NCBI GenBank assembly: GCA_016432425.1
Contig: CP066688.1
Location: forward strand, 642,619 to 706,618
Origin: Candidatus Daviesbacteria bacterium
Lineage (GTDB): Bacteria > Patescibacteriota > Microgenomatia > Daviesbacterales > UBA10151
Length of the DNA stretch: 64,000 nt
Reading direction: 5' to 3'
Shown here: positions 1 to 50,417 of the stretch, in pieces
Numbering within the stretch: position 1 is the stretch's first letter
How the letters are laid out: the number at the start of each line of letters is the position of its first letter
Program-made: the position numbers and the translations under genes
Notes under the pieces: generated by a model
Database searches by the model: none
What the model was told of the DNA's origin: nothing
The model's input: the letters and a program-made list of their open reading frames with translations, nothing else

Positions 1-321
1 TTTTGGGGAAATATCAGTGGCTAGAATATTTACGTTGCAACTTTTCAGGTTACAGGCTAAACTAATGGCAATATTACCAGCTCCAGTTCCTAAATCTAGG
101 ATAGTTAATGTAGGAAATCCTTCGTCGCTGTTTCGCTCCTCAGGATGATTGTTCTGCTTCGCGTACGCAATCACCTCATCTACCAATAATTCAGTTTCCG
201 GCCGGGGGATTAAAATGTCTGGGGTGAGCTTAAACTTAAGTTTGTAGAACTCGACATAACCTTTTTGATATTGAATAGGCTTATTCTGATCAATTTTTAA
301 TTTTAAATTTTTAATTTTCAT
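1..321 (-). CDS. prmC: Release factor glutamine methyltransferase PrmC/HemK. This is the N-terminal part only; the gene runs off the window start.
   Basis: Reverse-strand translation gives ...LTPDILIPRPETELLVDEVIAY...LDLGTGAGNIAISLA..., a class I SAM-MTase motif typical of HemK. The start codon ATG (CAT on +) is at 319-321. The gene lies immediately downstream of prfA, as in many bacteria. Confidence 0.75.
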   Translation of the reverse strand, partial: MKIKNLKLKIDQNKPIQYQKGYVEFYKLKFKLTPDILIPRPETELLVDEVIAYAKQNNHPEERNSDEGFPTLTILDLGTGAGNIAISLACNLKSCNVNILATDISPK

Positions 322-351
322 TTAAAATTTTAAATTTGAAATTTTAAATTA

Positions 352-2672: not shown

Positions 2673-2703
2673 AACTTAAGGATATAAGCAGAGCTTGAAA
2701 TTT

Positions 2704-3618
2704 TCAAGGTGAAAATTTTAGAACTTCCAGAAGGCGATCAAGTCCAAAAGAAAAACCGACTGCAGGAATACTTTTTTTGGAGAAAGTTCCAATTAGGTTA
2801 TCATACCTACCACCGGAACCAATAGTTAAAGAAGTGGGATCGCCATCTGGTTTAGCTTCAAAAATAACTCCGGTGTAATAGTCTAGCCCCCGGGCCAAGG
2901 TGGGGTCAAATTTAAAATCCACATTTTCTGCCAAATTATATTTTTCTTGTAAAAGCTTAAAAATTTGCTCTAAATTAGGAGTGGGTTTTTGAGATTTAAC
3001 TTTTTCCACAACCTCTTGGGCTTGGGTCTGTGCCAACCCTCCAGCCACTAATTCCTGGATGACTCCTTCTTCCCCAATTTTATATAATTTATCTATGGCT
3101 CTGACTACCTCAATAGATAAATCAGCAAAATTGGCTCGGTCATTAATTAGCATCACCGTCTTTTGAAACCCTAATTGTTTTAGGGAATTAATGGCTACAG
3201 CCAAAATTAAGGCATCTTCTTGTGGATCAGCAGATCCCACTGTGTCAAAATCAAATTGGGTAAATTCTCTAAAGCGGCCTTTTTGGGGGTTTTCTCCCCG
3301 GAAAACTTGGCCAATTTGGTATCTTCTAAAAGGTAGAGTTGGGTTATAAGTGGCCACATATCTAGCCAAGGGAACGGTTAGATCGTAGCGTAAGGCCAGT
3401 TTTCTGCCGCCTCGGTCTTCAAATTGATAAATTAATCTTTCCTCCTCGCCGTATTTGCCTTGTAGAGTTTGCGCAAATTCAACAGTGGGGGTTTCAATAG
3501 GTTCAAAGCCATAATTTTCCAAGATGCTGACAATTTGATTAATTGCCGCCCGCCTTTTTTGAGCAATGTTAGGTTTAATATCCCTAAACCCCTTTGGTGT
3601 CAGTGGTGCTATATTCAT
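2704..3618 (-). CDS. Histidyl-tRNA synthetase-like class II catalytic core (HisS/HisZ family). It has no anticodon-binding domain.
   Basis: Class II motifs are present: PKGFRD, LRYDLTVPLARYVA (motif 2-like), and GGRYDNLIGTFS...PAVGFSFGLDRLLEVL (motif 3 / HisRS signature). The protein ends right after motif 3 at 304 aa. Confidence 0.7.
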   Translation of the reverse strand: MNIAPLTPKGFRDIKPNIAQKRRAAINQIVSILENYGFEPIETPTVEFAQTLQGKYGEEERLIYQFEDRGGRKLALRYDLTVPLARYVATYNPTLPFRRYQIGQVFRGENPQKGRFREFTQFDFDTVGSADPQEDALILAVAINSLKQLGFQKTVMLINDRANFADLSIEVVRAIDKLYKIGEEGVIQELVAGGLAQTQAQEVVEKVKSQKPTPNLEQIFKLLQEKYNLAENVDFKFDPTLARGLDYYTGVIFEAKPDGDPTSLTIGSGGRYDNLIGTFSKKSIPAVGFSFGLDRLLEVLKFSP

Positions 3619-5054: not shown

Positions 5055-5808
5055 TTGGTTTTGCTGATTTAGTGGCAGATTCTGCTGAGGGAGTGGCAAT
5101 CTTTTTAGGTTTTAAGAAAGCTGGTTGGGAATAGATATAGACAAAATCAGCTGTCAGAATTTCATTTTTTCCCATCACTCCGGTGACAATCACAAAATTA
5201 TTTTTTGAAAGCTGCGATAAACTTACTGCTTGGCCATCTTTTTCTAAATCAGTTGAACTTACTGCAATAGTCACATTTTTCCCCTCTTTGGTGGTCAGAG
5301 TGACTAACTCATCAGCGATAGAGATAACCTGGCCCCACAGATGAGTTTTAACCTCTGGAGAGGGGGTAGGCCAGAGGATTACTTTTTTGGCAGTTAAAAC
5401 TCCATTTTCATCCACATCCCCTAAAGCTGCTATAAAATCCTCTGCCTGTAAGATTTTGAGGGAGTATTTGCTAATTTTTTTGTTATTACTGCTAAACTCG
5501 CTATCTTGGTTAATGCTAACAATTTTTGCCCCACTGTCAGTCGCTAAAGTTAAAGAAGCTTCCGATTTAAGTGTAACCATACCCACGTAAGCTTTATTTT
5601 GTAAATTTTTATTAACTTCCTGTTTCAACTGGGCTGCCTTAGAAGCAATCTCTTTTTGCAAGGCAGAGAGTTTCTCTTTTAAATTTGCAGAAGTACTGTT
5701 TTCAGCAGCATAAACATGGGATATGGGATAAGAATTAAGTATTAAGGGTAATACAAAAAGCAATAACCCCACAATACATAATACTAGACCCTTTTCCCTA
5801 ATTCTCAT
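5023..5808 (-). CDS. Secreted hypothetical protein (signal peptide, Lys/Ser/Thr-rich C-terminal tail)
   Basis: The N-terminus MRIREKGLVLCIVGLLLFVLPLILNSYPISHVYAAE is a signal peptide. It is near-identical to the N-terminus of CDS 26499. Confidence 0.6.
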   Translation of the reverse strand: MRIREKGLVLCIVGLLLFVLPLILNSYPISHVYAAENSTSANLKEKLSALQKEIASKAAQLKQEVNKNLQNKAYVGMVTLKSEASLTLATDSGAKIVSINQDSEFSSNNKKISKYSLKILQAEDFIAALGDVDENGVLTAKKVILWPTPSPEVKTHLWGQVISIADELVTLTTKEGKNVTIAVSSTDLEKDGQAVSLSQLSKNNFVIVTGVMGKNEILTADFVYIYSQPAFLKPKKIATPSAESATKSAKPTTPSTKKKSP

Positions 5809-6236
5809 ATTTGTTCCTTCAAATAAAAAACATTTTTAATGATTGTTTTTTCTTCACCACTGTCCGAAAAAACCGTTACGGAAATTTTATTAGGCCCTTC
5901 ATTTAAAGTTAAAGAAGCGGAAAAACTGCCGCTTGCGGAACTGGTCACTACTTGATCTTGCTCACTAGTACTAATTAATACTTTGAGGTGGGGTAAAGTT
6001 TTGCCGCTTACTAGTAAGTTAGTTTTAAAGACCAATCTATTATCACTAGGATCAGTTACCTCTAAACTCAAAGATTTGGGAGCAGAAGTCACAGGGCCGG
6101 ATAAAAAAGGGGTGGTACTGGATTGATATTGAACATTTAAAACATAATACAACCCACCCACAAAAACTAAGCCTAAAAGGAGTATCAATATCTGGGAAAT
6201 GACAAAAATTTTGGGGGAAAGCGGGCGATCGAGCAT
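5805..6236 (-). CDS. Hypothetical membrane-anchored protein
   Basis: 143 aa with an N-terminal TM helix. It overlaps the downstream gene by 4 bp (ATGA overlap), indicating an operon. Confidence 0.55.
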   Translation of the reverse strand: MLDRPLSPKIFVISQILILLLGLVFVGGLYYVLNVQYQSSTTPFLSGPVTSAPKSLSLEVTDPSDNRLVFKTNLLVSGKTLPHLKVLISTSEQDQVVTSSASGSFSASLTLNEGPNKISVTVFSDSGEEKTIIKNVFYLKEQI

Positions 6237-6248
6237 AAAAACATTTTA

Positions 6249-6347
6249 CCCTGAACATGGTGAATGGGCAAGCTTTGCTTACCCTGAACATGGTGAATGG
6301 GCAAGCTTTGCTTACCCTGAACATGGTGAATGGGCAAGCTTTGCTTA
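6249..6347. repeat. Three identical tandem copies of a 33-bp unit (CCCTGAACATGGTGAATGGGCAAGCTTTGCTTA) plus a degenerate fourth. This is a member of a dispersed repeat family.
   Basis: Exact 33-nt periodicity read directly from the sequence. The reverse complement of the unit recurs at 18254-18286. Confidence 0.9.
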
Positions 6348-6402
6348 CCTTGAGATTGAGGGATTGTCACTAATAGAAAATTTTGCTAAGATCGCTTTTG
6401 CC

Positions 6403-7044
6403 ATGGATATCTACTGGGGAGGACAAGCTCTTTTTAAAATTAAAGGCAAAACTGCCACCATAGTGATTGATCCGTTTGATCCAGAAATTGGTTTAAAATT
6501 GCCCAAAGATTTATCCGCTGATGCAGTTTTAGTAACTCACTCCCATCATGACCACAATAATTCTGCTGCAGTTTTAGGTAACCCTTTAGTTTTCGACGGT
6601 CCCGGAGAATATGAGGTAAAAGGAGCCATTATTACCGGGATTAGCTCTTTCCATGACAATGAAAATGGGGCCCAGAGGGGATTAAACACTATTTATCAAC
6701 TGATTATTGATGATGTTAATATTGTCCATTTAGGGGATTTGGGTCAAAGTATACTTTCGGAGGCTCAAGTTGCCCAAATCGAAACGGCAGATATTTTGTT
6801 GATTCCGGTGGGGGGAGTTTATACTATTTCTGGGAAAATCGCCTCTAATATTGTCTCCCAACTGGAGCCCAAAATTATTATCCCCATGCATTACAAAGTA
6901 GAAGGTTTAAAGTTTGAGTTGGAGGGGGTAGAGAATTTCTTGAAAGAAATGGGAGCAGAAAATGTAATCCCACAACCAAAACTGACTATTACCAAAGATA
7001 AACTACCTGATGAGCCCCAGGTGGTGGTACTAAGTAAAAGTTAA
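6403..7044 (+). CDS. Metallo-beta-lactamase-fold metal-dependent hydrolase. An alternative in-frame start at 6199 would add the repeat-encoded peptide (YPEHGEWASFA)x3.
   Basis: MDIYWGG...VIDPFD...LVTHSHHDHNN is the MBL-fold HxHxDH motif. The frame stays open from 6199 through the repeats. Confidence 0.7.
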   Translation: MDIYWGGQALFKIKGKTATIVIDPFDPEIGLKLPKDLSADAVLVTHSHHDHNNSAAVLGNPLVFDGPGEYEVKGAIITGISSFHDNENGAQRGLNTIYQLIIDDVNIVHLGDLGQSILSEAQVAQIETADILLIPVGGVYTISGKIASNIVSQLEPKIIIPMHYKVEGLKFELEGVENFLKEMGAENVIPQPKLTITKDKLPDEPQVVVLSKS

Positions 7045-8592: not shown

Positions 8593-8901
8593 TTATATTT
8601 TAGGTTCTATTAACCAAGATAACATTTGGATATGAGGATTTATGGGATGAGGATTATTGGTTGAAGGTTCCCCTAAAACTTGGCTAAAATCCCTGATTAA
8701 TCCCTCTCTACCTTTTTGGTCTCCAGAGACAGATAAAGACCAAAAAACAATACGACCTTTATCAGTATCCAAAGACGCTTTAGTGAGCATAAAAGTAGCA
8801 CCGTTTTCAACTCCTTCAAAGATCTCATGATCTTCCGGAATTTTATAAGGTGGAATTTCTGGTAAGGAAGTAATTCCTTTGACAATTTGATCTTGCTCCA
8901 T
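8593..8901 (-). CDS. Hypothetical small protein (102 aa)
   Basis: ORF only, with no SD and no recognisable motif. Confidence 0.3.
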   Translation of the reverse strand: MEQDQIVKGITSLPEIPPYKIPEDHEIFEGVENGATFMLTKASLDTDKGRIVFWSLSVSGDQKGREGLIRDFSQVLGEPSTNNPHPINPHIQMLSWLIEPKI

Positions 8902-10044: not shown

Positions 10045-10977
10045 ATGTTACCGGTGCTTTTTTCTTTGGGCAATTTATCTATTTCCTCTTTTGGCCTCTT
10101 TTTATCATTAGGGTTTCTGTACGGGGTCTTTTTAACCTGGAGGTTGTCTCGGGCTTGGGATATTAATGAAGAAAAAGTACTTGATTTGGTCTTATTAGTT
10201 TTTTTTGGGGGAATTTTAGGAGCGAGACTTTTATTTATTCTGGAACATTTAGAGTTTTTTTTAACTGATTTAACTAAAGTAATACTACTGATCAAATACC
10301 CGGGGTTTTCTTTTTGGGGAGGAATATTGGGAGGTTGGTTGGCTCTGTCAATTTTTGCCCGCCGTTTTAGATTGGATTTTTGGGCAATAGCGGATGTATT
10401 GGTAGTGGGACTGCTGGGAGGTTTGATTTTGGGTCAAATAGGTTGTTTGTTGGGCGGTTGTAATGTCGGAGTTGAATCTGAGCTATTTTTGGCGGTGCCC
10501 CAAGTAGGGGTAGTGGGGAAAAGATTACCCATTCAAGCTATTGAAGCCTTGATTTTAATATTAGTACTGCGGGATATTTGGAAAAAAGCTATTCATTTCC
10601 ACCCCCCTGGAAAAATAGTTTCTACAGCCTTTATTTATCTGGGGGTAGTCAAGTTAATGGCTGGTTTTTTAAAGGAGACTCATACCATAGAATGGGTTCT
10701 GGCACTGGTTTTAATTTTGGCAGGAGCAGTAATCTCCTATAAAATAAGCAAAAGACGACTTAAGTCCGATTGGAGATTGATTAGAAAAACTACACCTGCG
10801 CTAATTATAAATTCTCAAACTAGAGCTTATCTACTATCCAAAGCTTTAGAATTTTGTTATAATCAACTTAGCTCTTTTTTTAAAAATCAAAGAATTGAAT
10901 GGAGTTGGAGGTTAAAAGATATTAATAAACTTTTAAGAAAAATTCATGTTAAACCTACCCCGAAAAACTTTAATTAG
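10045..10977 (+). CDS. lgt: Prolipoprotein diacylglyceryl transferase-like membrane protein
   Basis: Polytopic membrane protein with Lgt-like G..LGARL / GQIGCLLGGCN regions. Confidence 0.6.
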   Translation: MLPVLFSLGNLSISSFGLFLSLGFLYGVFLTWRLSRAWDINEEKVLDLVLLVFFGGILGARLLFILEHLEFFLTDLTKVILLIKYPGFSFWGGILGGWLALSIFARRFRLDFWAIADVLVVGLLGGLILGQIGCLLGGCNVGVESELFLAVPQVGVVGKRLPIQAIEALILILVLRDIWKKAIHFHPPGKIVSTAFIYLGVVKLMAGFLKETHTIEWVLALVLILAGAVISYKISKRRLKSDWRLIRKTTPALIINSQTRAYLLSKALEFCYNQLSSFFKNQRIEWSWRLKDINKLLRKIHVKPTPKNFN

Positions 10978-11392
10978 GATTAAAAATCTACTGCAGCGTC
11001 AACAACGCGAAGTAGAGGAAAATATTGAAAAGGTGGAAAAAGATGATCCCACCAAAGATATCGCCTTGGCGGAAAGTAGCGAGCCGGGAACTGAATCCTG
11101 GATTGCTGAAGGGCATGCCAAGGCCATTGCTATAGCTAATGAACTAAAAAATGCAGCAGGAAATATTAAGTTAGCTTTAAGTAAAATTAGACAAGGTAAA
11201 TATGGTGTTTGTGAAAAGTGTGGTAAAAATATTGAACACCAACGCTTGTTAATAATTCCCACTACCCGTTACTGCATGGCTTGTTCCAAAATTAAGCATA
11301 AGCAGAGCTTGCCATCTGGTGATGGTAAGCAGAGCTTGCCATCTAACAATGGTAAACAGAACTCCTCTGCGAATAATCTGAATCACCGCTAG
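10946..11392 (+). CDS. DksA/TraR-family C4 zinc-finger protein with a repeat-encoded C-terminal tail
   Basis: CEKCGKNIEHQRLLIIPTTRYCMAC is the DksA/TraR zinc finger. The C-terminus KQSLPSGDGKQSLPSNNGKQ is encoded by the tandem 27-bp repeat units. Confidence 0.65.
   Translation: MLNLPRKTLIRIKNLLQRQQREVEENIEKVEKDDPTKDIALAESSEPGTESWIAEGHAKAIAIANELKNAAGNIKLALSKIRQGKYGVCEKCGKNIEHQRLLIIPTTRYCMACSKIKHKQSLPSGDGKQSLPSNNGKQNSSANNLNHR
11299..11352. repeat. Two tandem 27-bp units (TAAGCAGAGCTTGCCATCTGGTGATGG and TAAGCAGAGCTTGCCATCTAACAATGG) with degenerate flanks. They belong to the same family as the repeats at 6249 and 18254.
   Basis: Read from sequence. Unit A is identical to 18287-18313. Confidence 0.85.
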
Positions 11393-12151
11393 ATGAGCCT
11401 CCCTGTAGTTTTTGAAGATGAGTTTTTACTGGTTGTTGATAAACCTCCCGGATTGGTGACTACTCCCGGCGAAACTGTCAAGAGCAAATCCTTAGCGCAG
11501 ATACTTCAGGCTGATTTTGGTATAGATTTAGAGCGGGGAGGATTAGTTCATCGCCTGGATAAAGATACTTCCGGCCTGATTTTAGTAGCCAAAAATGCTC
11601 AAATTTTGGCGAGCTTACAAAATCAGTTTAAAAGTAGACAAGTCAAAAAACAGTATTTAGCCCTAGTTCATGGCAGCTTGAATGAGACTAGGATAGTAGA
11701 AGGTAGTATTGCCCGCAATCCCGGAAATAGAGAAAAATTTACCGTTTTAGCGGAAGGTAAGGAGGCTAAAACTGAAGTAGAACCATTAAAACAATTGACA
11801 ATGGATAGTGAACAATTGACAGAGATTTTTTCTGATTTTAACAAAATTCAAATGCGCAAACTAAGTAATCTTCACTACAGTAAATTTACTTTGACCTCCT
11901 GCCGGCCCCTAACTGGACGGACCCATCAAATTAGGGTACATTTAAAATATATTGGTTTTCCAATCGTGGCAGACCAAAAATATGGAGGCCGCAAAATGAA
12001 CCGTTTGGATAATAGATGGTGTCCCCGGATGTTTTTGCATGCTCATAAGCTAGAGTTTACTCATCCGGTTAACAGGGAGTGGATCAAATTAGAAACTGAG
12101 TTGCCGAAAGACTTAAAAAAAGTGTTGAACTTATTAGAGCTTAAAGCTTAG
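11393..12151 (+). CDS. RluA-family 23S rRNA/tRNA pseudouridine synthase
   Basis: HRLDKDTSGLILVAKN carries the catalytic Asp motif, and GRTHQIRVH is present. Confidence 0.85.
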   Translation: MSLPVVFEDEFLLVVDKPPGLVTTPGETVKSKSLAQILQADFGIDLERGGLVHRLDKDTSGLILVAKNAQILASLQNQFKSRQVKKQYLALVHGSLNETRIVEGSIARNPGNREKFTVLAEGKEAKTEVEPLKQLTMDSEQLTEIFSDFNKIQMRKLSNLHYSKFTLTSCRPLTGRTHQIRVHLKYIGFPIVADQKYGGRKMNRLDNRWCPRMFLHAHKLEFTHPVNREWIKLETELPKDLKKVLNLLELKA

Positions 12152-13907: not shown

Positions 13908-15146
13908 ATGCATTTTAAGATTTTACATCAATCAGGAAAAGCCAGAGTAGGGAAGTTAACCACTTCTCATGGGGTAGTGGAAACTCCCAATTTTTTACCG
14001 GTAGCAACTTTAGCAGCAATTAAGGGAGTTTCCCCGGTCGACTTAGAGAGCCTTGGAGCTCAAGTTTTAATGACTAATACTTACCATCTAAGTTTGCAAC
14101 CGGGAGAAAAAACTATCCAAAAATTGGGCGGATTACATAAATTTATGGGTTGGAGTAGACCTTTAATGACTGACTCAGGGGGTTTCCAGGTTTTTTCTTT
14201 GGGGGTAGGGTTAGAGAGTGGGGAGGGAAAAGTGTTAAAGGAAGTAGAGAATGAGGACTTTGGTAAAAGAGGTAGCGTGAGACTTGCTAAAGTAACAGAA
14301 GATGGTGTAACTTTTCAATCCCATATTGATGGCTCCAAACATTTTTTGGGCCCGGAAGAATCTATTAAAATTCAACATCAGCTGGGCGCGGATCTAATGG
14401 TGGCATTTGATGATCATGAGTCTGCTACGATGAGCTATGATCAGATACAAAAATCTTTGGAACTGACAGAAATTTGGGGACTGATAAGCTTAAAAGAGTA
14501 TCGCAAAAGAATAGGTGTCAAGCTATCCCACCCTCCAGGTGGAAACGTAGCTACACCTGGACTTTATGGGGTGGTTCATGGTGGGTTGCATAAAGATTTA
14601 AGGATAAGATCGGCAAAGTTTACTGATAAAAATTTTGAAGCTATTGCCATTGGCGGAATTTATGGTACACGATCACAGCTTTATAAAATTGTGGAATGGG
14701 TAACTGGTGCTGTTTCGGATGAAAAGGTCAGACACTTGCTGGGTATAGGTGAAATTGTCGATTTATTTAATGCCATAGAACGGGGTGTAGATCTGTTTGA
14801 TTGCATCTCACCTACGAGACGGGCCCGTAATGGTTCCCTTTATGTTTCACCTGAGGCTCAAGTATATTCAACTAGAGCTCAATATAGAGAGCGCAATTTT
14901 ACTGTTAATATTAAAGCACGTAGGTTCGCTGATGACAAGCAGCCACTTGATCCCAGTTGCAAATGTTCTACTTGTGAAAATTTTTCCCGGGCTTATTTGA
15001 ATCATTTATATAGAAGCGGAGAAATTCTTTATCATCAGTTAGCCACTGTTCACAACCTGGCTTTTATTATTAATTTGATGAGAGAGATTAGATTTGCCAT
15101 TAAAGCCAATAATTTAGGAAAACTTAAAAAAAGATGGTTAGGCTAA
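13908..15146 (+). CDS. tgt: Queuine tRNA-ribosyltransferase
   Basis: GVVETPNFLPVAT and LMTDSGGFQVFSL match Tgt, and the zinc site CxCxxC...H is present (DPSCKCSTCENF...NHLY). The protein is 412 aa and carries internal insertions. Confidence 0.9.
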   Translation: MHFKILHQSGKARVGKLTTSHGVVETPNFLPVATLAAIKGVSPVDLESLGAQVLMTNTYHLSLQPGEKTIQKLGGLHKFMGWSRPLMTDSGGFQVFSLGVGLESGEGKVLKEVENEDFGKRGSVRLAKVTEDGVTFQSHIDGSKHFLGPEESIKIQHQLGADLMVAFDDHESATMSYDQIQKSLELTEIWGLISLKEYRKRIGVKLSHPPGGNVATPGLYGVVHGGLHKDLRIRSAKFTDKNFEAIAIGGIYGTRSQLYKIVEWVTGAVSDEKVRHLLGIGEIVDLFNAIERGVDLFDCISPTRRARNGSLYVSPEAQVYSTRAQYRERNFTVNIKARRFADDKQPLDPSCKCSTCENFSRAYLNHLYRSGEILYHQLATVHNLAFIINLMREIRFAIKANNLGKLKKRWLG

Positions 15147-17460: not shown

Positions 17461-18195
17461 TTAAATTTCTGCTTCTTCTAGCTCTTCGGAGTCGTCACTA
17501 TCTTCATCAGCCAGATCATCAATTTTGGTAGCGGAGAGCATATCAATATTGGAGCCGCGCTGGCTGGAATCTAAGAATGAGGGTTGGTTGTGAAATCTTT
17601 TACTGCGAAAAACCTCTTTAATCAAAACAATCAAGCCGTTAACCTTGACAGCTTTAATAAAAATTTCATATTTATTACCTCCTTTAGTTAATCTTAAAAT
17701 ATGATGGGAGACATCATCAGGCAAAACTCCTAGATACCCTCCGGAGAGAGTAGCCACAGTCACTCCTCGATTTTTAACCACCATATTAACTTGCATCCCG
17801 GGATAAACTTGAGATAATTTTTGTGGCTCTGCTACTTTTAATAGATTAACCACTTTAGTTTTTCCTGGTTCTTGTAAAAATAAAGAGGAAGAAATTTTGC
17901 CGGAGGTAGTAGGTAATAACTGTTTTCCGTCAGCTTTGGTAGCTTTTAAAATCTTTAAGTTTTTAGCGGCAATCGGGTTATAAGGATCATATTTTAAAGT
18001 AGCGCTATAATATTTTTTTGCTAAAGTATAATTACCGGTTTCAAAATAAGCCTTGGCCAACCTGTTAAGAGCATCAATAGATTGGGGATCAACTTTTAAG
18101 ATTTCTTTATTAATTTTGATGGCGGTTTCCCAGTGAGAATTTAGGGCAGCTTGAATGGCTGCTTGGTGCAGATTAGACGGGAGAGGATCGCTCAT
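17461..18195 (-). CDS. TPR-repeat protein. The start is set at the internal ATG at 18195; the ORF stays open upstream through the repeat array to 18375.
   Basis: TPR-like helices (ALNRLAKAYFETGNYTLAKKYYSATLKYDPYNPIAAKNL). The upstream in-frame extension would encode ...ASSAYPEHGEWASFAYP from the repeats. Confidence 0.6.
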   Translation of the reverse strand: MSDPLPSNLHQAAIQAALNSHWETAIKINKEILKVDPQSIDALNRLAKAYFETGNYTLAKKYYSATLKYDPYNPIAAKNLKILKATKADGKQLLPTTSGKISSSLFLQEPGKTKVVNLLKVAEPQKLSQVYPGMQVNMVVKNRGVTVATLSGGYLGVLPDDVSHHILRLTKGGNKYEIFIKAVKVNGLIVLIKEVFRSKRFHNQPSFLDSSQRGSNIDMLSATKIDDLADEDSDDSEELEEAEI

Positions 18196-18253
18196 TGGCC
18201 AAAAGTATAGAAGTAAGGTAGTTGACTTGTCAATATTTTGGCCATTATTTGGG

Positions 18254-18346
18254 TAAGCAAAGCTTGCCCATTCACCATGTTCAGGGTAAGCAGAGCTTGC
18301 CATCTGGTGATGGTAAGCAGAGCTTGCCTCCGCCAGCTGGCGGATG
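18254..18346. repeat. Three tandem units (33, 27 and 33 nt) with a shared head TAAGCA[A/G]AGCTTGCC and variable, partly palindromic tails. Unit 1 is the reverse complement of the 6249 unit.
   Basis: Read from sequence. The tail CCGCCAGCTGGCGG is a perfect palindrome. The array lies in the divergent intergenic region between the TPR gene and yebC. Confidence 0.85.
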
Positions 18347-18363
18347 TTAAACTTATCGTTGTC

Positions 18364-19125
18364 ATGAGCGGACATTCTAAGTGGTCAACTATCAAGCGGG
18401 CTAAAGGGGCGGCTGATGTTAAACGCGGTTTAACATTTACCAAGATGGCTAATGCTATTACTATTGCTGCCAAATTAGGGGGTAGCGGTGATCCGGCAGC
18501 TAACCCCAGATTGCGGACAGCTTTGGATGAAGCGAGGGCGGTTAATATGCCCAAAGATAATATTGCTCGGGCTATTGATCGGGGTCTGGGTAAGGGTGGT
18601 AGCGGCACGCTGGAAGAGGTGGTTTATGAAGGATTTGGTCCGGGCAGAGTGGCTTTTATAGTAGAAGGAGTAACTGATAACAGATTGCGGACTAATCAGG
18701 AAATTAAAAGTTTTTTTGAGCGCAATGGCGGTACCCTGGGAAATCCGGGAACAGTGGGGTATATGTTTGATAAATTAGGAGAGATTAAAGTTACGGGAAA
18801 AGGTGGAGCTAGAGACAATGAAATTTTAAAACTAATTGATTTGGGAGCAGAAGATGTAGAAGATTATGAAGAAGAAAATATACAAAGGTATTTAGTATAT
18901 GTACAAAGCCCAGAATTAAATACTATGGGTATAAAAATTACTCAAGCTGGATTTACAATTGAAAGCCAAAATTTAATGATGAAACCCAAGGTTTTGCAGG
19001 AAGTAACAGAGCCGGAAATAGCCAAAAGGGTACTGGAGTTTGCAGAGAAGCTGGAAGGTCATGATGATATCCAAAAAGTCTATGCCAATTTTGATATTCC
19101 CGACAATCTTTTGGAGGGAAGTTAG
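18364..19125 (+). CDS. yebC: YebC/PmpR-family transcriptional regulatory protein
   Basis: MSGHSKWSTIKRAKG is the canonical YebC N-terminus. The start was set at 18364 rather than the ORF-track 18238. Confidence 0.88.
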   Translation: MSGHSKWSTIKRAKGAADVKRGLTFTKMANAITIAAKLGGSGDPAANPRLRTALDEARAVNMPKDNIARAIDRGLGKGGSGTLEEVVYEGFGPGRVAFIVEGVTDNRLRTNQEIKSFFERNGGTLGNPGTVGYMFDKLGEIKVTGKGGARDNEILKLIDLGAEDVEDYEEENIQRYLVYVQSPELNTMGIKITQAGFTIESQNLMMKPKVLQEVTEPEIAKRVLEFAEKLEGHDDIQKVYANFDIPDNLLEGS

Positions 19126-19724: not shown

Positions 19725-20500
19725 AAGATATCACCTGGGGGGTGTCCCAGCTTGACACCTAAGGATAAGTAGCTTACCATGAATTCATGCCAGGTAGAAA
19801 AACTCCCCTTGTTACAGATGAGATTTATCATGTTTATAACAGAGGCATAAATAGACAGCCCACTTTTACCACTAAAAAGGAATATCAAAGAGCAATGTTG
19901 GCTCTTAAGTTTTATAAAGTTGCCAATCCACCGGTTAGATTGTCTAAATTTTTAGAATCTGATAAAGAGCGTCAGGCTGAAATTTTAAAAATGATGGATC
20001 AGGGGGAAAAATTAGTGGAGATTCTTTGTTTTTGCCTAATGCCGAATCACTTTCATTTCCTATTAAAACAGAAAAAGGAGGGTGGAATCTCGAAATTCTT
20101 AGGGAATTTCCAAAATAGTTATACCCGTTATTTTAACACTCTAAACGAAAGAGATGGTTCATTATTTTTAGACCAGTTTAAAGCCAAAAGGATAGAAACT
20201 GACGAACAACTCATTCATGTATCAAGATATATTCATTTAAATCCTTACACAGGTTTTGCAGTAAAATCCTTTAAGGAGTTAGAAAAGTATCCCTGGTCAT
20301 CATTCCCGAGTTACCTTACAGGTGATAATAGTTTTATAGAACCTGATTTAGTATTAGGAACGTTTAAAGGGGTTGGAGATTATAGAGAATTTGTTTTAGA
20401 CCAGGCTAATTATCAAAGAGAACTAAAGTTTATTGAGCATCTCCTTTTAGAATAATCCCTAGGTGCCTGCCTATGCCACCCCCCAGGTGTCAAATTAGTA
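19725..20500 (+). mobile_element. IS200/IS605-family (REP-associated tyrosine transposase-like) element flanked by 13-bp inverted repeats
   Basis: CACCTGGGGGGTG at 19733-19745 and CACCCCCCAGGTG at 20480-20492 are reverse complements. Small hairpins are also present (GGTGTC...GACACC). Confidence 0.6.
19787..20455 (+). CDS. Y1 HUH transposase (IS200-like / RAYT, Transposase_17 family)
   Basis: YHVYNRG near the N-terminus, the HUH motif LMPNHFHFLL, and the catalytic-Tyr region VSRYIHLNP. The protein is 222 aa, typical of the family. Confidence 0.8.
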   Translation: MPGRKTPLVTDEIYHVYNRGINRQPTFTTKKEYQRAMLALKFYKVANPPVRLSKFLESDKERQAEILKMMDQGEKLVEILCFCLMPNHFHFLLKQKKEGGISKFLGNFQNSYTRYFNTLNERDGSLFLDQFKAKRIETDEQLIHVSRYIHLNPYTGFAVKSFKELEKYPWSSFPSYLTGDNSFIEPDLVLGTFKGVGDYREFVLDQANYQRELKFIEHLLLE

Positions 20501-30590: not shown

Positions 30591-30688
30591 GCTTAGCTGG
30601 CTATAATCCCACCTGGAGGGTGGAATTATATTAAGCTTTGTTCTCCATCTTCATCATGGGTTTTAAAAATGAAGATTACAAGATCTGC

Positions 30689-40257: not shown

Positions 40258-41001
40258 ATGTTAAGACGCTGGATCGAACAACAAGAAGTAACTGGTAACC
40301 TTAATGCTGTTAAAGATGGACAAGATCTCCTAGGTAAATATGGAGATGTATCTTTAGATAACGAGGATAAAATACCTACTTTAGTTAGTAGCCCAAAACA
40401 ACCTGCCGTTATAGATTTAGAAACAGAATGGCTAATAAAAGCAAATAGATTAGCATTTCTTTATGCCAAAGAATTGGGTCAATCAAGAGAACAATATATA
40501 GATTATTTGCCTAAATTTGAGCCCCAACCGGAAAGTTATAGATATAGATTTTACATACCAGCTATAGTCCAAGTTCCTCAAGGCAAGTTAACTCTTGTAA
40601 GGATGTTGGATATTCTAGGAGTTACCAATTATTTATTAAACCTTAGAGATATAAAAGATTGGCAAAAAGACCCACAAAAGTTTAAAACTCCAAATAAACC
40701 TTATACAACTTATCTCCATGATGGTTTAATAAACCTAGGTAGGACTCCAAGAGATGTTAGATCATCTTTAGTTTACGGCGAAAGAGGAGGGACTGTTTTT
40801 GATGGTTTGGCACTACTGGCTCAAGATCCTGATATATTAAAAAATCATTATCTGGATTTACCTGGCTCTCAATATGGGTCTGGCGGCGTTCCGTTTCTGG
40901 GCGGTTGGGGTGCTAGGCCGGGGCTCCGCTACTTTCGGGATGACAGTGTCGGTCCGAAAGGTGGTTCTGTGGTTGCGGGAAGAAATATTGTAACTAAGTA
41001 A
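40258..41001 (+). CDS. Hypothetical protein whose last approximately 32 codons form a DGR-type variable region (putative diversified ligand-binding protein)
   Basis: The 3' 96 nt (40882-40977) match a downstream repeat (41324-41419), with mismatches almost exclusively at adenines of the downstream copy. An SD (AAGGAG) lies upstream of the ATG. Confidence 0.6.
   Translation: MLRRWIEQQEVTGNLNAVKDGQDLLGKYGDVSLDNEDKIPTLVSSPKQPAVIDLETEWLIKANRLAFLYAKELGQSREQYIDYLPKFEPQPESYRYRFYIPAIVQVPQGKLTLVRMLDILGVTNYLLNLRDIKDWQKDPQKFKTPNKPYTTYLHDGLINLGRTPRDVRSSLVYGERGGTVFDGLALLAQDPDILKNHYLDLPGSQYGSGGVPFLGGWGARPGLRYFRDDSVGPKGGSVVAGRNIVTK
40882..40977 (+). repeat. DGR variable repeat (VR) candidate
   Basis: Base-by-base comparison with 41324-41419 over 96 aligned positions gives 28 mismatches. 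In 25 of them the other copy has A where this copy has G, C or T. Confidence 0.7.
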
Positions 41002-41323
41002 TTGGACTTTGACCCTTTTGGCATCTTGATTTTTGGTTTCCAAATTTGTTAAATTATTTCTGAAATTAGGTTAATGAATCCTTAGGCTTTCAGCTTTAGG
41101 GTCACCGAAATCTTCTTTAAGACTAAGAAATCACCAGAGTTTTGTTGAAAATACTTTTAACAAAAGCGTGTGAGAAATTCTTAAGGTACTCCGTGTTTTT
41201 TCCTTTGATCTGCTGGTTGGCGGACGATGAAATTCAGTGGTGAGAATGTTAAGCGAAGCTTGCAAACTTCGTTTGTCAAACCACGGTGGGGTTTTTGTGC
41301 GGGGAGAGACACATAATAAGTCT

Positions 41324-41419
41324 GACAGCGTTCCGTATCTGAACGATTGGAATGATAGACCGAAGCTCAACTACAATCGGGATGACAATGCCAATCCGAA
41401 CTATGGTTCTGTAGTTGCG
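41324..41419 (+). repeat. DGR template repeat (TR) candidate. It is A-rich at the positions that vary in VR, and lies inside the spurious-looking ORF 41237..41569.
   Basis: Same alignment. This copy retains A at all 25 A-type mismatch positions. Confidence 0.7.
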
Positions 41420-41539
41420 ATAGTATCTTTTGAATTTTTAAAGTATCTTAACCAGCCTAATTTTAACCAATCACTACAATCTTATTTAGGTTATTTATCT
41501 CATGCAAATTCTTATCGTTTAACTAATAAATTAATAAGC

Positions 41540-42205
41540 TCAGTTCGGTTTTGGCATTTTCAGCATTAAATATTCCAAAATAGCCCGTTGGTTAACATTT
41601 TGCTTAAACCATTTTTTAGCCTCAAAAAGGGTCTTTAAAAACTGGGTAGCAGGTTCCGGATTGGTAGTTAGTTGATCGCGAAAATAAAAAATTAATCCAT
41701 CTAAAAACTCTCCCCGCTCTTCCAGTTTTTCAATATATTTAAATTGTTCTTCCAGTGAGGATTTTAATAATTTTTCTATATCTTTTTTATAATCCACCCC
41801 GTAGGTGGATTCAGTTGGCACCTTGTCTTTTATTGGATATTTTCTGATGATTTCACAGCGTGACAAAATAGTTGGTAAAAAATAACTCTCAGAGTTGGCA
41901 CCGAGAATTACCAAACCACTTTCTGGCAGCTCCTCGAGAGTTTTTAATAAAGTATTTTGGGCCACTTGAGTCAGCGTGGCAGCATCTTCTAAAACAGCTA
42001 CTTTGCCCTTAGCCTGGACAGGCTTAAAAGCAAAATGTTCTTTAATTTTTTTAGCTTCATTAATGCCCAGTTTGGAATCTGCGGGAATAAAAAGTAGATC
42101 CGGATGGTTTCGATTAATATTTAAGGAGGCAAGAATATTGTCAATCTCCCCTATTCTTGCTTGGGGATCGCCAGCCAGCAAAATTTTAGCTACCATATTT
42201 CGCAT
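41540..42205 (-). CDS. holB: DNA polymerase III delta-prime subunit-like (clamp-loader AAA+ lid/sensor region)
   Basis: NTLLKTLEELP and PTILSRC are sensor motifs characteristic of HolB/DnaX-family proteins. The protein is short at 221 aa. Confidence 0.65.
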   Translation of the reverse strand: MRNMVAKILLAGDPQARIGEIDNILASLNINRNHPDLLFIPADSKLGINEAKKIKEHFAFKPVQAKGKVAVLEDAATLTQVAQNTLLKTLEELPESGLVILGANSESYFLPTILSRCEIIRKYPIKDKVPTESTYGVDYKKDIEKLLKSSLEEQFKYIEKLEERGEFLDGLIFYFRDQLTTNPEPATQFLKTLFEAKKWFKQNVNQRAILEYLMLKMPKPN

Positions 42206-48254: not shown

Positions 48255-48302
48255 TTTCCCCGCCAATTGACATTGGACAATTGACATTGGACAATTAAAT
48301 TA

Positions 48303-49815: not shown

Positions 49816-50378
49816 ATAAAAACGGGTTCACCTTGGTGGAAATTTTAGTAGTGATCGCAATTTTAACCGTGATGGGGGTAATTTTAAGTGAGATTTTTTT
49901 CCGCTCGGTTCGTGGTAGCGCTCAGGCAGAAATTATCTCCCGGATTAAACAAAATGGCCAGGCCGCCCTGGAAACCATGGATAAGACTTTAAGGAGCGCT
50001 GATGGGCTGGTGTGTGTGAGCAGTGATAATTCAGCAATTTTATTTGTCAAAAGTGGGGTTTATACCCGTTATACTTATACTGCTGCCACTTCTTCTGTCA
50101 ACGGCTCACTTTCAGTGGATTATCCTACTAGCGGGGATTGCAGCGCCCCCAAAGTTTCCGTGGCCTACTTAACTGACATTGGCAGCAGCGATCCTAAAAC
50201 CGGTGTTTCGATCTCTGGAACTTCTGGCAGCAGCGGAGTTTTTGTCCGTACTAAGCAAGCAGGAGTTAAAGATGTTGTGATGATCAGTTTTGATATTGGG
50301 GTGCCTTTAGGCTTACCTACTTATCTGAAGCAACGAATTGATCCCAGTAGTTTTCAAACTATAGTGGAACTGCGCTAA
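49812..50378 (+). CDS. Type IV pilin-like protein
   Basis: MNKNG/FTLVEILVVIAIL. Confidence 0.78.
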   Translation: MNKNGFTLVEILVVIAILTVMGVILSEIFFRSVRGSAQAEIISRIKQNGQAALETMDKTLRSADGLVCVSSDNSAILFVKSGVYTRYTYTAATSSVNGSLSVDYPTSGDCSAPKVSVAYLTDIGSSDPKTGVSISGTSGSSGVFVRTKQAGVKDVVMISFDIGVPLGLPTYLKQRIDPSSFQTIVELR

Positions 50379-50417
50379 CAATTGACAATGGACAATTGAC
50401 AATGGACAATTAAATTA

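Follow-up and report, generated by a model that had tools for sequence, protein, structure and literature searches.

Three consecutive copies of a 33-nt sequence lie between two divergent genes in the 64,000-nt stretch of Candidatus Daviesbacteria DNA analyzed here (the window), and they raise the question of whether such repeats belong to a protein or are an element of the DNA itself. The three identical copies at 6249-6347 that the first-pass annotation had described were borne out by the sequence and by TRF, which gave a period of 33 nt, 3.3 copies and 98% matches at 6246-6353. The same annotation had proposed a dispersed family with a conserved head, a DNA-level element being one of its two alternatives, and this holds as well. 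The 15-mer head TAAGCARAGCTTGCC occurs exactly eight times in the window, at three loci (locus 1, minus strand: 6267, 6300 and 6333; locus 2, plus strand: 11299 and 11326; locus 3, plus strand: 18254, 18287 and 18314). When up to two mismatches were allowed, the window, with a GC content of 40%, contained 10 matches, as compared to 0.41 in shuffled sequences; 10 matches were reached by none of 100 shuffles.

The units share the head and differ in their tails. Unit A (33 nt) consists of the head TAAGCAAAGCTTGCC and the tail CATTCACCATGTTCAGGG, while the head is followed by ATCTGGTGATGG in unit B (27 nt), by ATCTAACAATGG in unit B2 (27 nt) and by TCCGCCAGCTGGCGGATGT in unit C (34 nt). Locus 1 is composed of AAA, locus 2 of B-B2 and locus 3 of A-B-C, such that unit A is common to loci 1 and 3, being the first unit of the latter, and unit B is common to loci 2 and 3. 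TA forms the start of each window unit and is also found directly 3' of each. At locus 2, TRF reported 2.3 copies of the 27-nt unit at 11299-11360. The last unit of locus 3 (18314-18347), when delimited by the next TA like the others, is 34 nt long; thus, the claim that all units are multiples of 3 applies to the 33- and 27-nt units but fails for unit C. The arrays and two further matches, each with two mismatches to the head, are as follows.

6249..6347, minus strand: array 1, three identical 33-nt units A, between ...CTCAAGG and TAAAAT.
11299..11352, plus strand: array 2, units B and B2 (27 nt each), inside the DksA/TraR-type gene 10946-11392, in its 3' tail.
18254..18347, plus strand: array 3, units A (33 nt), B (27 nt) and C (34 nt).
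41250..41275, plus strand: probable degenerate member, in which TAAGC-GAA-GCTTG precedes a second hairpin, CAAAC-TTC-GTTTG.
2685..2709, plus strand: possible degenerate member, TAAGCAGAGCTTG followed by AAATTTTCAAGG, which may be a chance match.

The two-hairpin layout at 41250..41275 suggests that this copy probably belongs to the family. The match at 2685..2709 is antisense, in a 31-nt spacer that separates two minus-strand genes.

Comparison with related genomes showed that arrays have been inserted into existing sequences. The 143-aa gene and the hydrolase gene are separated by 67 nt in the closest relative (L225), whose hydrolase is 90% identical, and by 166 nt in the window. The L225 spacer is thus exactly 99 nt (3 x 33) shorter, and in the alignment the three units form a single clean block. 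The empty site of L225 reads, on the minus strand, GTGACA-17 nt-...CTCAAGG|TAAAAT-6 nt-ATG. At that position, in front of TAGAAT-6-ATG, another relative (L227, 83% identical) carries a single unit of 33 nt, whose tail (CATTTGCTTCGCAAAGGG) is different. Either this site was hit twice, or an old insertion was precisely lost in L225. At locus 2, the DksA/TraR-type orthologues are 118-128 aa long versus 148 aa in the window, and DNA alignment to L220 and L222 revealed a clean, in-frame 54-nt insertion (2 x 27) between ...AAGCA and TAAACAG...; the coding tail 3' of the insertion and the stop codon overlapping the rluA start are both kept in the relative. Insertion at two of the three loci (1 and 2) is thus demonstrated by empty sites. 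Array 3 is located in the divergent spacer between a TPR gene (17461-18195, minus strand) and yebC (ATG at 18364). No comparable empty site was found for this locus, where the relative L219 has an extra gene.

Units from the window and from other genomes, which range from 24 to 45 nt across the family, have a common anatomy, in which the head forms the tip of a hairpin: of (GG)TAAGC-ARA-GCTTG(CC), the 13-nt tip TAAGC-ARA-GCTTG is invariant and contains a fixed T.G mismatch. Three copies have GA...TC in place of GG...CC. The tip is followed by a variable segment, the first bases of which are complementary to those immediately 5' of the tip, and then by a short linker that usually terminates in GG at the unit end. 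When the eight bases on each side of the tip were compared among 43 distinct copies (window and other genomes), 77% of the cells were paired versus 68.5% after shuffling, and double-change cells numbered 88 versus 44; the observed values were attained by none of 500 shuffles. Written as a circle, a unit has its 3' end (...GTGG, ...ATGG or ...GGG) directly before the tip; together with the CCAC, CCAT or CCC after the tip, they make a single hairpin of 8-9 bp, with a predicted energy as DNA of -5 to -6.5 kcal/mol. As RNA as well as DNA, the head strand is predicted to fold better than its complement, because of the T.G mismatch in the tip (at locus 3, z = -4.7 for the head strand versus -2.3 for the complement). 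Mismatches in the outer stem show no strand bias (41 G.T versus 40 A.C); thus, the outer stem looks like a DNA-level inverted duplication, and the strand-specific part is the tip only.

The family extends well beyond this genome. A scan of one genome per species with the 15-mer head produced at least 120 loci, most of them single chance matches (a 15-mer is expected by chance about 2,200 times in 596 Gb, by our estimate). Among the matches listed, about 35 loci have the full architecture, all of them in Patescibacteria-type MAGs. An identical tip was found in MAGs labelled as Daviesbacteria, Levyibacteriota, Woesebacteria, Paceibacterota, Kaiserbacteria, Saccharibacteria, Elulimicrobium and "Patescibacteria group". 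A few full-architecture loci occur in MAGs labelled as Gammaproteobacteria, and at least one of these labels is doubtful, given that assembly CAYNFQ01 has Daviesbacteria-type synteny. The one cyanobacterial match (L080) is without the stem extension and looks like chance. The 24-nt unit TAAGCAAAGCTTGCCACTTCGTGG was found at three unrelated loci in one MAG (L092, L111 and L114) and within the obg gene of another (L011). No heads were seen in ca. 120 kb of sequence from the closest relatives and from around Y1 transposase homologues, which amounts to ca. 90 kb when L210 and L211, which mostly duplicate L209, are left out. TRF found only 12-25-nt arrays of other kinds in the relatives. Viral contigs contained 69 single head matches, which is the chance level, with the stem extension in only two; a phage link was therefore rejected. 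The exact conservation of the tip across phyla would also fit a conserved host function, and in this respect speaks against a mobile element. In the searchable literature we found neither the head sequence in a relevant context nor a description of such repeats in Patescibacteria.

We consider it probable, with moderate confidence, that the arrays represent a miniature mobile palindromic element, that is, very small, non-coding, hairpin-tipped insertions that would be selfish or regulatory DNA. Insertion, the dispersal of identical units and the variation in copy number are directly observed. Moreover, the tip is identical across phyla yet absent in the sequenced parts of sibling genomes, which argues for mobile, horizontally spreading DNA rather than a conserved host signal. 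Recent expansion, which the first-pass annotation had proposed from the identity of the copies, is supported. The arrays are more interesting than a plain intergenic repeat, though not for frame preservation; the element has a conserved hairpin tip, a defined target and clear signs of recent mobility.

The insertions share a simple target. The insertion site falls between ...G and TA(A/G), with a 3' flank that is nearly always TAAA or TAG, and sequence common to both sides of an insertion amounts to at most GGTAA. The sites occupied include stop codons, the 5' edges of -10 boxes, tRNA positions 7|8 and the D-loop GG|TA; at four loci, the stop codon of the upstream ORF is the TAA of the head. 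By our tally, 32 loci are co-directional with the local gene or tRNA, five are antisense and six are unclear. Within the window, locus 1 is opposite in orientation to loci 2 and 3, within a constant GC skew; over these only three loci, the orientation thus seems to follow the local gene and not replication. The same arrangement may speak against a lagging-strand rule of the IS200/IS605-like kind.

Promoters are among the occupied sites, and the candidate signals next to arrays 1 and 3 are listed below.

6243..6248, minus strand: -10 hexamer TAAAAT of gene 5805-6236, from the promoter scan, with the ATG at 6236, 6 nt downstream.
6266..6271, minus strand: TTGCCC in the head of the promoter-proximal unit, from the promoter scan (TTGCCC-17-TAAAAT, 9/12 matches).
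18348..18353, plus strand: -10-like hexamer TAAACT, read from the sequence, with TGT in front as in extended -10 elements (TGn); the yebC ATG follows after 10 nt.

Gene 5805-6236, on the minus strand, has array 1 directly against the 5' edge of its -10 box (GG|TAAAAT), and TTGCCC at 6266..6271 may provide a replacement -35-like hexamer that functions as a -35. Array 3 abuts the 5' edge of TAAACT in the same way; with 8/12 matches, this hexamer was not flagged by the promoter scan. Shine-Dalgarno-like motifs are few in the window (8/68 genes), and TAnnnT hexamers peak 6-7 nt before the start codons (18/69 genes versus a background of about two per position), a pattern suggestive of leaderless-type promoters. 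In addition to arrays 1 and 3, arrays or single units in L127, L128, L132, L099 and L227 abut a TAnnnT. Units of 33 or 34 nt place TTGCCN 17 or 18 nt from the next TA; the ends of many others form an extended -10, TGG|TAnnnT. Promoter insertions that survive would thus keep a working promoter, and expression may be kept.

These same features could be explained by a selected cis-regulatory module, in which a conserved DNA-binding protein would use the imperfect 5-3-5 palindrome TAAGC-N3-GCTTG as its operator, or the palindrome would serve as a portable promoter element. Selection would then retain arrays beside -10 boxes to tune transcription, with copy number as a rheostat. Such a module would fit the position of arrays 1 and 3 against -10 boxes, with the last unit providing TTGCCC at 17 nt or TGn, as well as the seven loci at which a unit directly precedes TAnnnT with an ATG 6-10 nt downstream, and the tip that is identical across phyla. 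However, the same units are found in coding sequences (obg, the DksA tail, membrane proteins), in the D-loop of a pseudo-tRNA and at stop codons, the closest relatives are without units at the same promoters, and lengths of 24-45 nt give useless TTGCCN spacings in most units. We therefore regard this explanation as unlikely, while it is the one that fares best among the alternatives to a mobile element.

Several copies are associated with tRNA genes, where they are accompanied by a duplication. Seven loci (L026, L045, L052, L060, L067, L079 and L124) have the layout X-head-X'-linker-X-rest of tRNA, in which X covers nucleotides 1-7 of the tRNA where the insertion precedes U8-A9, or 1-18 where it lies at the D-loop GG|TA, and X' is an inverted copy of X, degenerate to a varying degree (in L052, 12/16 bases match). 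X starts exactly at +1 in six of the seven, the exception being L079, where it starts 2 nt upstream. A -10-like hexamer precedes the upstream X by 5-6 nt in L026, L067 and L079 and by about 10 nt in L052. Thus, the duplicated piece of the tRNA seems to begin near the transcription start and to end where the insertion lies. An X-head-X' arrangement was also found with the first codons of rplK (L055), and five 24-nt units lie within the D-loop of the 5' half of a pseudo-tRNA-Ile (L126). A plain cut-and-paste transposase should not sense +1, which hints at a process confined to the transcription bubble or one in which nascent RNA acts as the primer. For the mobile-element reading itself this is contrary evidence, in that duplication of the tRNA 5' end from +1, together with an inverted copy, does not fit simple cut-and-paste.

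In pre-tRNAs, the tRNA-linked hairpin would be the 5' leader, as might be expected of a structured RNA element, that is, a processing, stability or leader hairpin in head-strand transcripts. The conserved T.G, which is a pair on the head strand only, the better folding of that strand (z = -4.7 versus -2.3 at locus 3) and the strong sense bias in orientation point the same way. Nevertheless, we find a role of this kind improbable, and somewhat more so than a regulatory module: arrays 1 and 3 each face a gene whose -10 box lies downstream of the array, which probably places the array outside the mRNA of that gene, the outer-stem mismatches are unbiased by strand (41 G.T versus 40 A.C), antisense copies exist (L008, L063, L133 and L134), and no Rfam family matches. 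When the window and 13 related loci were compared to Rfam 15 at the gathering score, only tRNA, rRNA and a group I intron were matched, none of them at the arrays; for locus 3, raising E to 10 produced only two matches, far below the gathering scores. A known RNA or ribozyme was rejected on this basis.

The family was also searched for in metagenomes, with two heads required 8-38 nt apart. This produced 15 loci with periods of 24, 25, 27, 28, 31, 33, 40, 41 and 45 nt; L067 has a period of 34 nt. At one of the metagenomic loci, a 41-nt unit is present in 3, 8, 5, 3 and 3 copies in five samples, which is a true copy-number polymorphism. For the window's own strain, the contigs with the flanking genes end within the array. 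Identical copies within an array and copy numbers that differ among samples are also what one would see in an ordinary local minisatellite, each array having arisen locally by replication slippage, without any transfer from locus to locus. As the sole explanation this is already contradicted, and we give it very little weight: unrelated loci carry identical units, combined in different ways, single units are inserted in obg and elsewhere, the same tip is found in many phyla, and the empty sites are precise.

There remains the protein-level alternative of the first-pass annotation, under which array 1 would be a (YPEHGEWASFA)x3 extension of the hydrolase. Several lines of evidence speak against it. 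The Pfam model of the hydrolase begins at the ATG at 6403, all of the listed homologues (119/119) are 210-237 aa long, L225 is without the 99 nt, and the only protein to span the array is this genome's own database entry (P0167, 281 aa). Furthermore, the promoter scan placed a candidate hydrolase promoter, TTGTCA-17-TAAGAT with TG in front, between array 1 and the ATG at 6403; array 1 is thus upstream of the promoter-like site and is not an N-terminal extension. The wider claim of terminal translated extensions survives for locus 2, which is probably translated, but not for loci 1 and 3, which are intergenic.

ORFs do cross all three arrays (6199-7044, plus strand; 10946-11392, plus strand; 17461-18375, minus strand), and units A, B and B2 are stop-free in 4-5 of six frames. 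The absence of stop codons, which had been taken as telling, is unremarkable, because random 33-mers of the same composition have three open frames on average and at least four in 32% of cases. Array 2 would be read as KQSLPSGDG KQSLPSNNG (18 aa). In-gene copies elsewhere are 24 or 27 nt long, and all sense copies read in one frame, K-Q-S-L-P; the TAA frame of the unit is closed. The host genes of copies within coding sequences include obg, the DksA tail and membrane proteins. In the obg gene of L011, a Woesebacteria MAG, a loop is eight residues longer owing to a 24-nt insertion, which lies between the ELKKY helix and the strand ahead of TKSD; without it the segment is equal in length to that of E. 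coli ObgE. Antisense copies inside genes are found in L008 and L063. That coding DNA contains only copies of 3n length in the stop-free K-Q-S-L-P frame suggests an effect of selection. Thus, the claim that arrays are in frame with the adjoining gene is right in that the ORFs are open and locus 2 is in frame, but family periods of 25, 28, 31, 34, 40 and 41 nt show that frame preservation is not family-wide. The frame constraint is a filter that acts only on copies landing in genes, and the preserved frame is a by-product of selection on those few. Translation of the arrays as terminal low-complexity extensions at all three loci has next to no chance of being correct: the ORFs open across all three arrays, the 281-aa database hydrolase that includes array 1 and the true coding position of locus 2 are outweighed by the Pfam start, the homologue lengths, the promoter-like site downstream of array 1 and the array-free relative, and by open frames that are expected by chance in a family with many periods that are not multiples of 3.

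How would a mobile palindromic element of this size move? Tentatively, and with less than even confidence, we suggest movement as single-stranded hairpin DNA, with the tip recognized by an enzyme acting in trans. An excised or circular form would have a perfect 8-9 bp hairpin across the unit junction. The GG at the 3' end of a unit, followed by TA, would recreate the type of site that is occupied, thereby favoring head-to-tail arrays of like or unlike units, and replication slippage is likely to contribute to array growth. A more detailed proposal has four parts and is, taken as a whole, more speculative still. First, the 24-nt unit would move as a single-stranded "dumbbell," its junction remaking a 9-bp hairpin capped by the invariant tip. 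Second, the enzyme recognizing the tip would be common to Patescibacteria or have spread horizontally across them. Third, insertion would occur at G|TA in DNA opened by transcription, at leaderless promoters in the -10 box and in tRNA genes within the first 7-18 nt. Fourth, in tRNA genes the segment from the start to the insertion point would be copied, both directly and inverted, by a nascent-RNA-primed or bubble-limited mechanism; to our knowledge, no transposon has been described with such a mechanism. As carriers of portable -35 or extended -10 information, the units would also rewire the promoters of reduced genomes.

A transposase gene is located close to locus 3.

19787-20455: Y1_Tnp (IS200-like, RAYT-like), 222 aa, identified by Pfam, 1.4 kb from locus 3; the only transposase of the window.

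No heads are present at the ends of this gene, which carry a different conserved hairpin, CACCTGGGRGGTG...TTGACACCTAGGG, with solo copies at 14529 and 30610. It is flanked by inverted repeats, CACCTGGGGGGTG...TTGACACCTA, that are kept in homologues from four other lineages, and homologues are present in genomes in which no heads were seen. Mobilization of the heads was not assigned to this Y1_Tnp, given that its own ends are another hairpin and the surroundings of its homologues are head-free; a distant homologue does adjoin a head array in L124, so that a link may exist. No mobilizing enzyme was identified and the evidence is wholly comparative, which also counts against the mobile-element reading.

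Among known elements, the closest analogs in function and size would seem to be the 21-27-nt small dispersed repeats (SDRs) of Nostoc. SDRs reportedly occur in Nostoc and other heterocystous cyanobacteria, with lengths of 21-27 nt. They are said to form hairpins with compensatory changes and to lie often inside or beside short tandem repeats; their mobility was reportedly judged from insertion polymorphisms, with no known mobilizing enzyme. The present family resembles them in its dispersed units of 24 and 27 nt and its common hairpin with a co-varying stem. In a comparison made by description only, it differs from SDRs in its occurrence in Patescibacteria, in combining a single invariant 13-nt tip with variable stems, in its head-to-tail arrays of up to eight units, in its G|TA target, in duplicating the 5' segments of tRNAs and in being inserted occasionally, in frame, into coding sequences.

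Like the REP/REPIN-RAYT system, the family consists of short, imperfect palindromes that are dispersed and mostly extragenic (3-5 loci in 64 kb here), there is a RAYT-like Y1_Tnp gene in the window, and REP hairpins are recognized strand-specifically. In contrast to that system, there is no GTAG-type 5' tetranucleotide, the base before the head being usually G (GG|TAAGC); units are in direct head-to-tail tandem, not in inverted pairs (REPIN/BIME); and the RAYT-like gene is flanked by the other hairpin family rather than by heads, which are also missing around RAYT homologues in the relatives. In-frame insertion recalls the Rickettsia palindromic elements (RPEs), reportedly palindromic selfish DNA inserted in frame in conserved protein genes, and in the present family adds 8 aa in Obg and 18 aa in the DksA tail. 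RPEs are 100-150 bp long, have one copy per site and are restricted to Rickettsia, whereas the units described here are 24-45 nt, mostly intergenic, often in tandem and hosted by Patescibacteria MAGs.

Correia elements and MITEs likewise insert next to TA, are non-autonomous and have ends that can complete promoter hexamers. However, the present units are four to six times smaller and tandem, their ends (TAAGCA... and ...GTGG) are not terminal inverted repeats, and no cognate IS was identified; the TA or TAA at both junctions of a unit is ambiguous as a target-site duplication. With the MIRUs of mycobacterial VNTR loci, the family shares dispersed tandem repeats between operon genes, polymorphic copy number (3, 5 or 8 here) and unit ends that overlap stop and start signals, but MIRUs are 46-101 bp long, have no invariant hairpin tip and do not occur as identical single units inside genes. 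The first-pass annotation had excluded a CRISPR array, and this is supported: the conserved part is 15 nt, the "spacers" of 9-30 nt are identical within an array or shared between loci, and no cas genes were noticed among the window ORFs. Arrays of type III toxin-antitoxin RNAs were dropped, as spacers are shared or absent and the downstream genes are unrelated housekeeping genes, and so were DNA-uptake sequences, the density of which is far above that of the heads. Judged by their sequence features, the present repeats would thus be very small mobile palindromic repeats that are members of none of the families compared.

The genomes of Patescibacteria are tiny and streamlined and are thought to be poor in mobile DNA. 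Hairpin elements of 24-45 nt that occur across phyla would be a new source of variation in reduced genomes, being located at promoters, at stop codons, in tRNA genes and inside essential genes, with copy numbers that vary between populations. If the four-part proposal is true, they would be among the smallest mobile DNAs known. The precise empty sites, the invariant tip and the duplications of tRNA starts make the mechanism testable. The elements also have practical consequences: they break short-read assemblies, as in L121, L223 and L224, whose contigs end inside an array, and they mislead gene callers, as with the hydrolase of this genome, which was deposited as a protein of 281 aa instead of about 213-219 aa.

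The Y1_Tnp gene of the window, which is related to IS200 and to the REP-associated Y1 transposases (RAYTs), is inserted between yebC/wHTH and ruvC and is delimited on both sides by inverted CACCTGGGRGGTG...TTGACACCTAGGG hairpins. These hairpins are kept around homologues of four other Microgenomates lineages, where the genomic contexts differ. At E<=1e-10 the protein family itself comprises 7,743 members, a very large number, and solo, REP-like copies of the flanking hairpin occur at two other sites in the window.

The Y1_Tnp gene and its hairpins
19787-20455, + strand: Y1_Tnp (IS200/RAYT-like) gene, 222 aa, with flanks 19732-19770 and 20458-20489
14529-14541, - strand: solo copy of the flanking hairpin, REP-like
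30610-30622, + strand: solo copy of the flanking hairpin, REP-like

The repeat arrays affect gene calling as well as assembly. The database protein of the window hydrolase (P0167; ORF 6199-7044) has 281 aa, as against 210-237 aa in its homologues, because its start was called through array 1, the three 33-nt units beside this gene. A similar over-extension, through array 3, is possible for the TPR gene (ORF 17461-18375). Four short-read (Logan) contigs from the window's strain and related strains (L121, L223, L224, and L214) stop either within the array of 33-nt units or at the hairpin that flanks the RAYT-like gene; thus, assemblies are broken by such small repeats. Taxonomic labels also call for caution. 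Loci L014 and L215 belong to a MAG labelled 'uncultured Gammaproteobacteria' (assembly CAYNFQ01, GCA_964396715.1). Because this assembly has the RAYT-ruvC-DUF5656 synteny of the Daviesbacteria type, at 78% identity, its label is probably wrong. Several further 'binchicken' Gammaproteobacteria loci, which bear the head (the conserved hairpin-tip sequence that begins each repeat unit), may be mislabelled too.

Heads also accompany tRNA genes in other genomes. In Parcubacteria- and Saccharibacteria-type MAGs, a head is part of a module of ~80 nt located 5' of tRNA genes (L113, L079, L060, L045, L024, and L020), at times in tandem (L060, L023), with the layout X-head-X'-(T)CGCTCGGAGA-variable hairpin-TCCTCCTCAC(T/A)C-tRNA, where X is a duplicated 5' segment of the tRNA and X' its more or less degenerate inverted copy. 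At L026, L067, and L079, -10-like boxes (TAAAAT, TATAAT, and TAGAAT) lie 5-6 nt 5' of the tRNA +1 or its duplicated copy, and at L052 a TGTATAAT box lies ~10 nt 5' of the same point; with boxes so close, transcription of these tRNAs may start at, or very near, the mature 5' end. At locus L126 (6440-6760), a hotspot for the partial duplication of tRNAs, five 24-nt units split the D-loop of a pseudo-tRNA-Ile 5' half, which is followed by an intact tRNA-Ile and then by a second copy of its 3' half.

Shine-Dalgarno-like motifs are few within the window (8 of 68 genes), and TAnnnT hexamers, many of them following a TGn, show a peak at 6-7 nt 5' of the start codon (18/69 genes; examples at 8593, 8941, 13908, 25873, 34474, and 56584). 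Together, these features suggest that leaderless mRNAs are the majority in this Daviesbacteria genome.

Other tandem repeats are also present, and 14-nt repeats are frequent in intergenic DNA of relatives (L206, L211, L212, L215, and L219).

Other tandem repeats of the window
292-350: heptamer AATTTTA, 8.6 copies
11790-11821: repeat inside rluA, listed with the 14-nt repeats
48264-48296 and 50378-50411: 14-nt repeats CAATTGACATTGGA and ACAATTGACAATGG, containing TTGACA, directly 5' of two pseudopilin genes

Finally, the 3' part of ORF 40258-41001 has a partial, diverged paralogue in ORF 41246-41569 (76% identity between 40878-40977 and 41320-41419). Neither ORF has a Pfam match, and ORF 41246-41569 carries a degenerate head-like element (41250) at its start.
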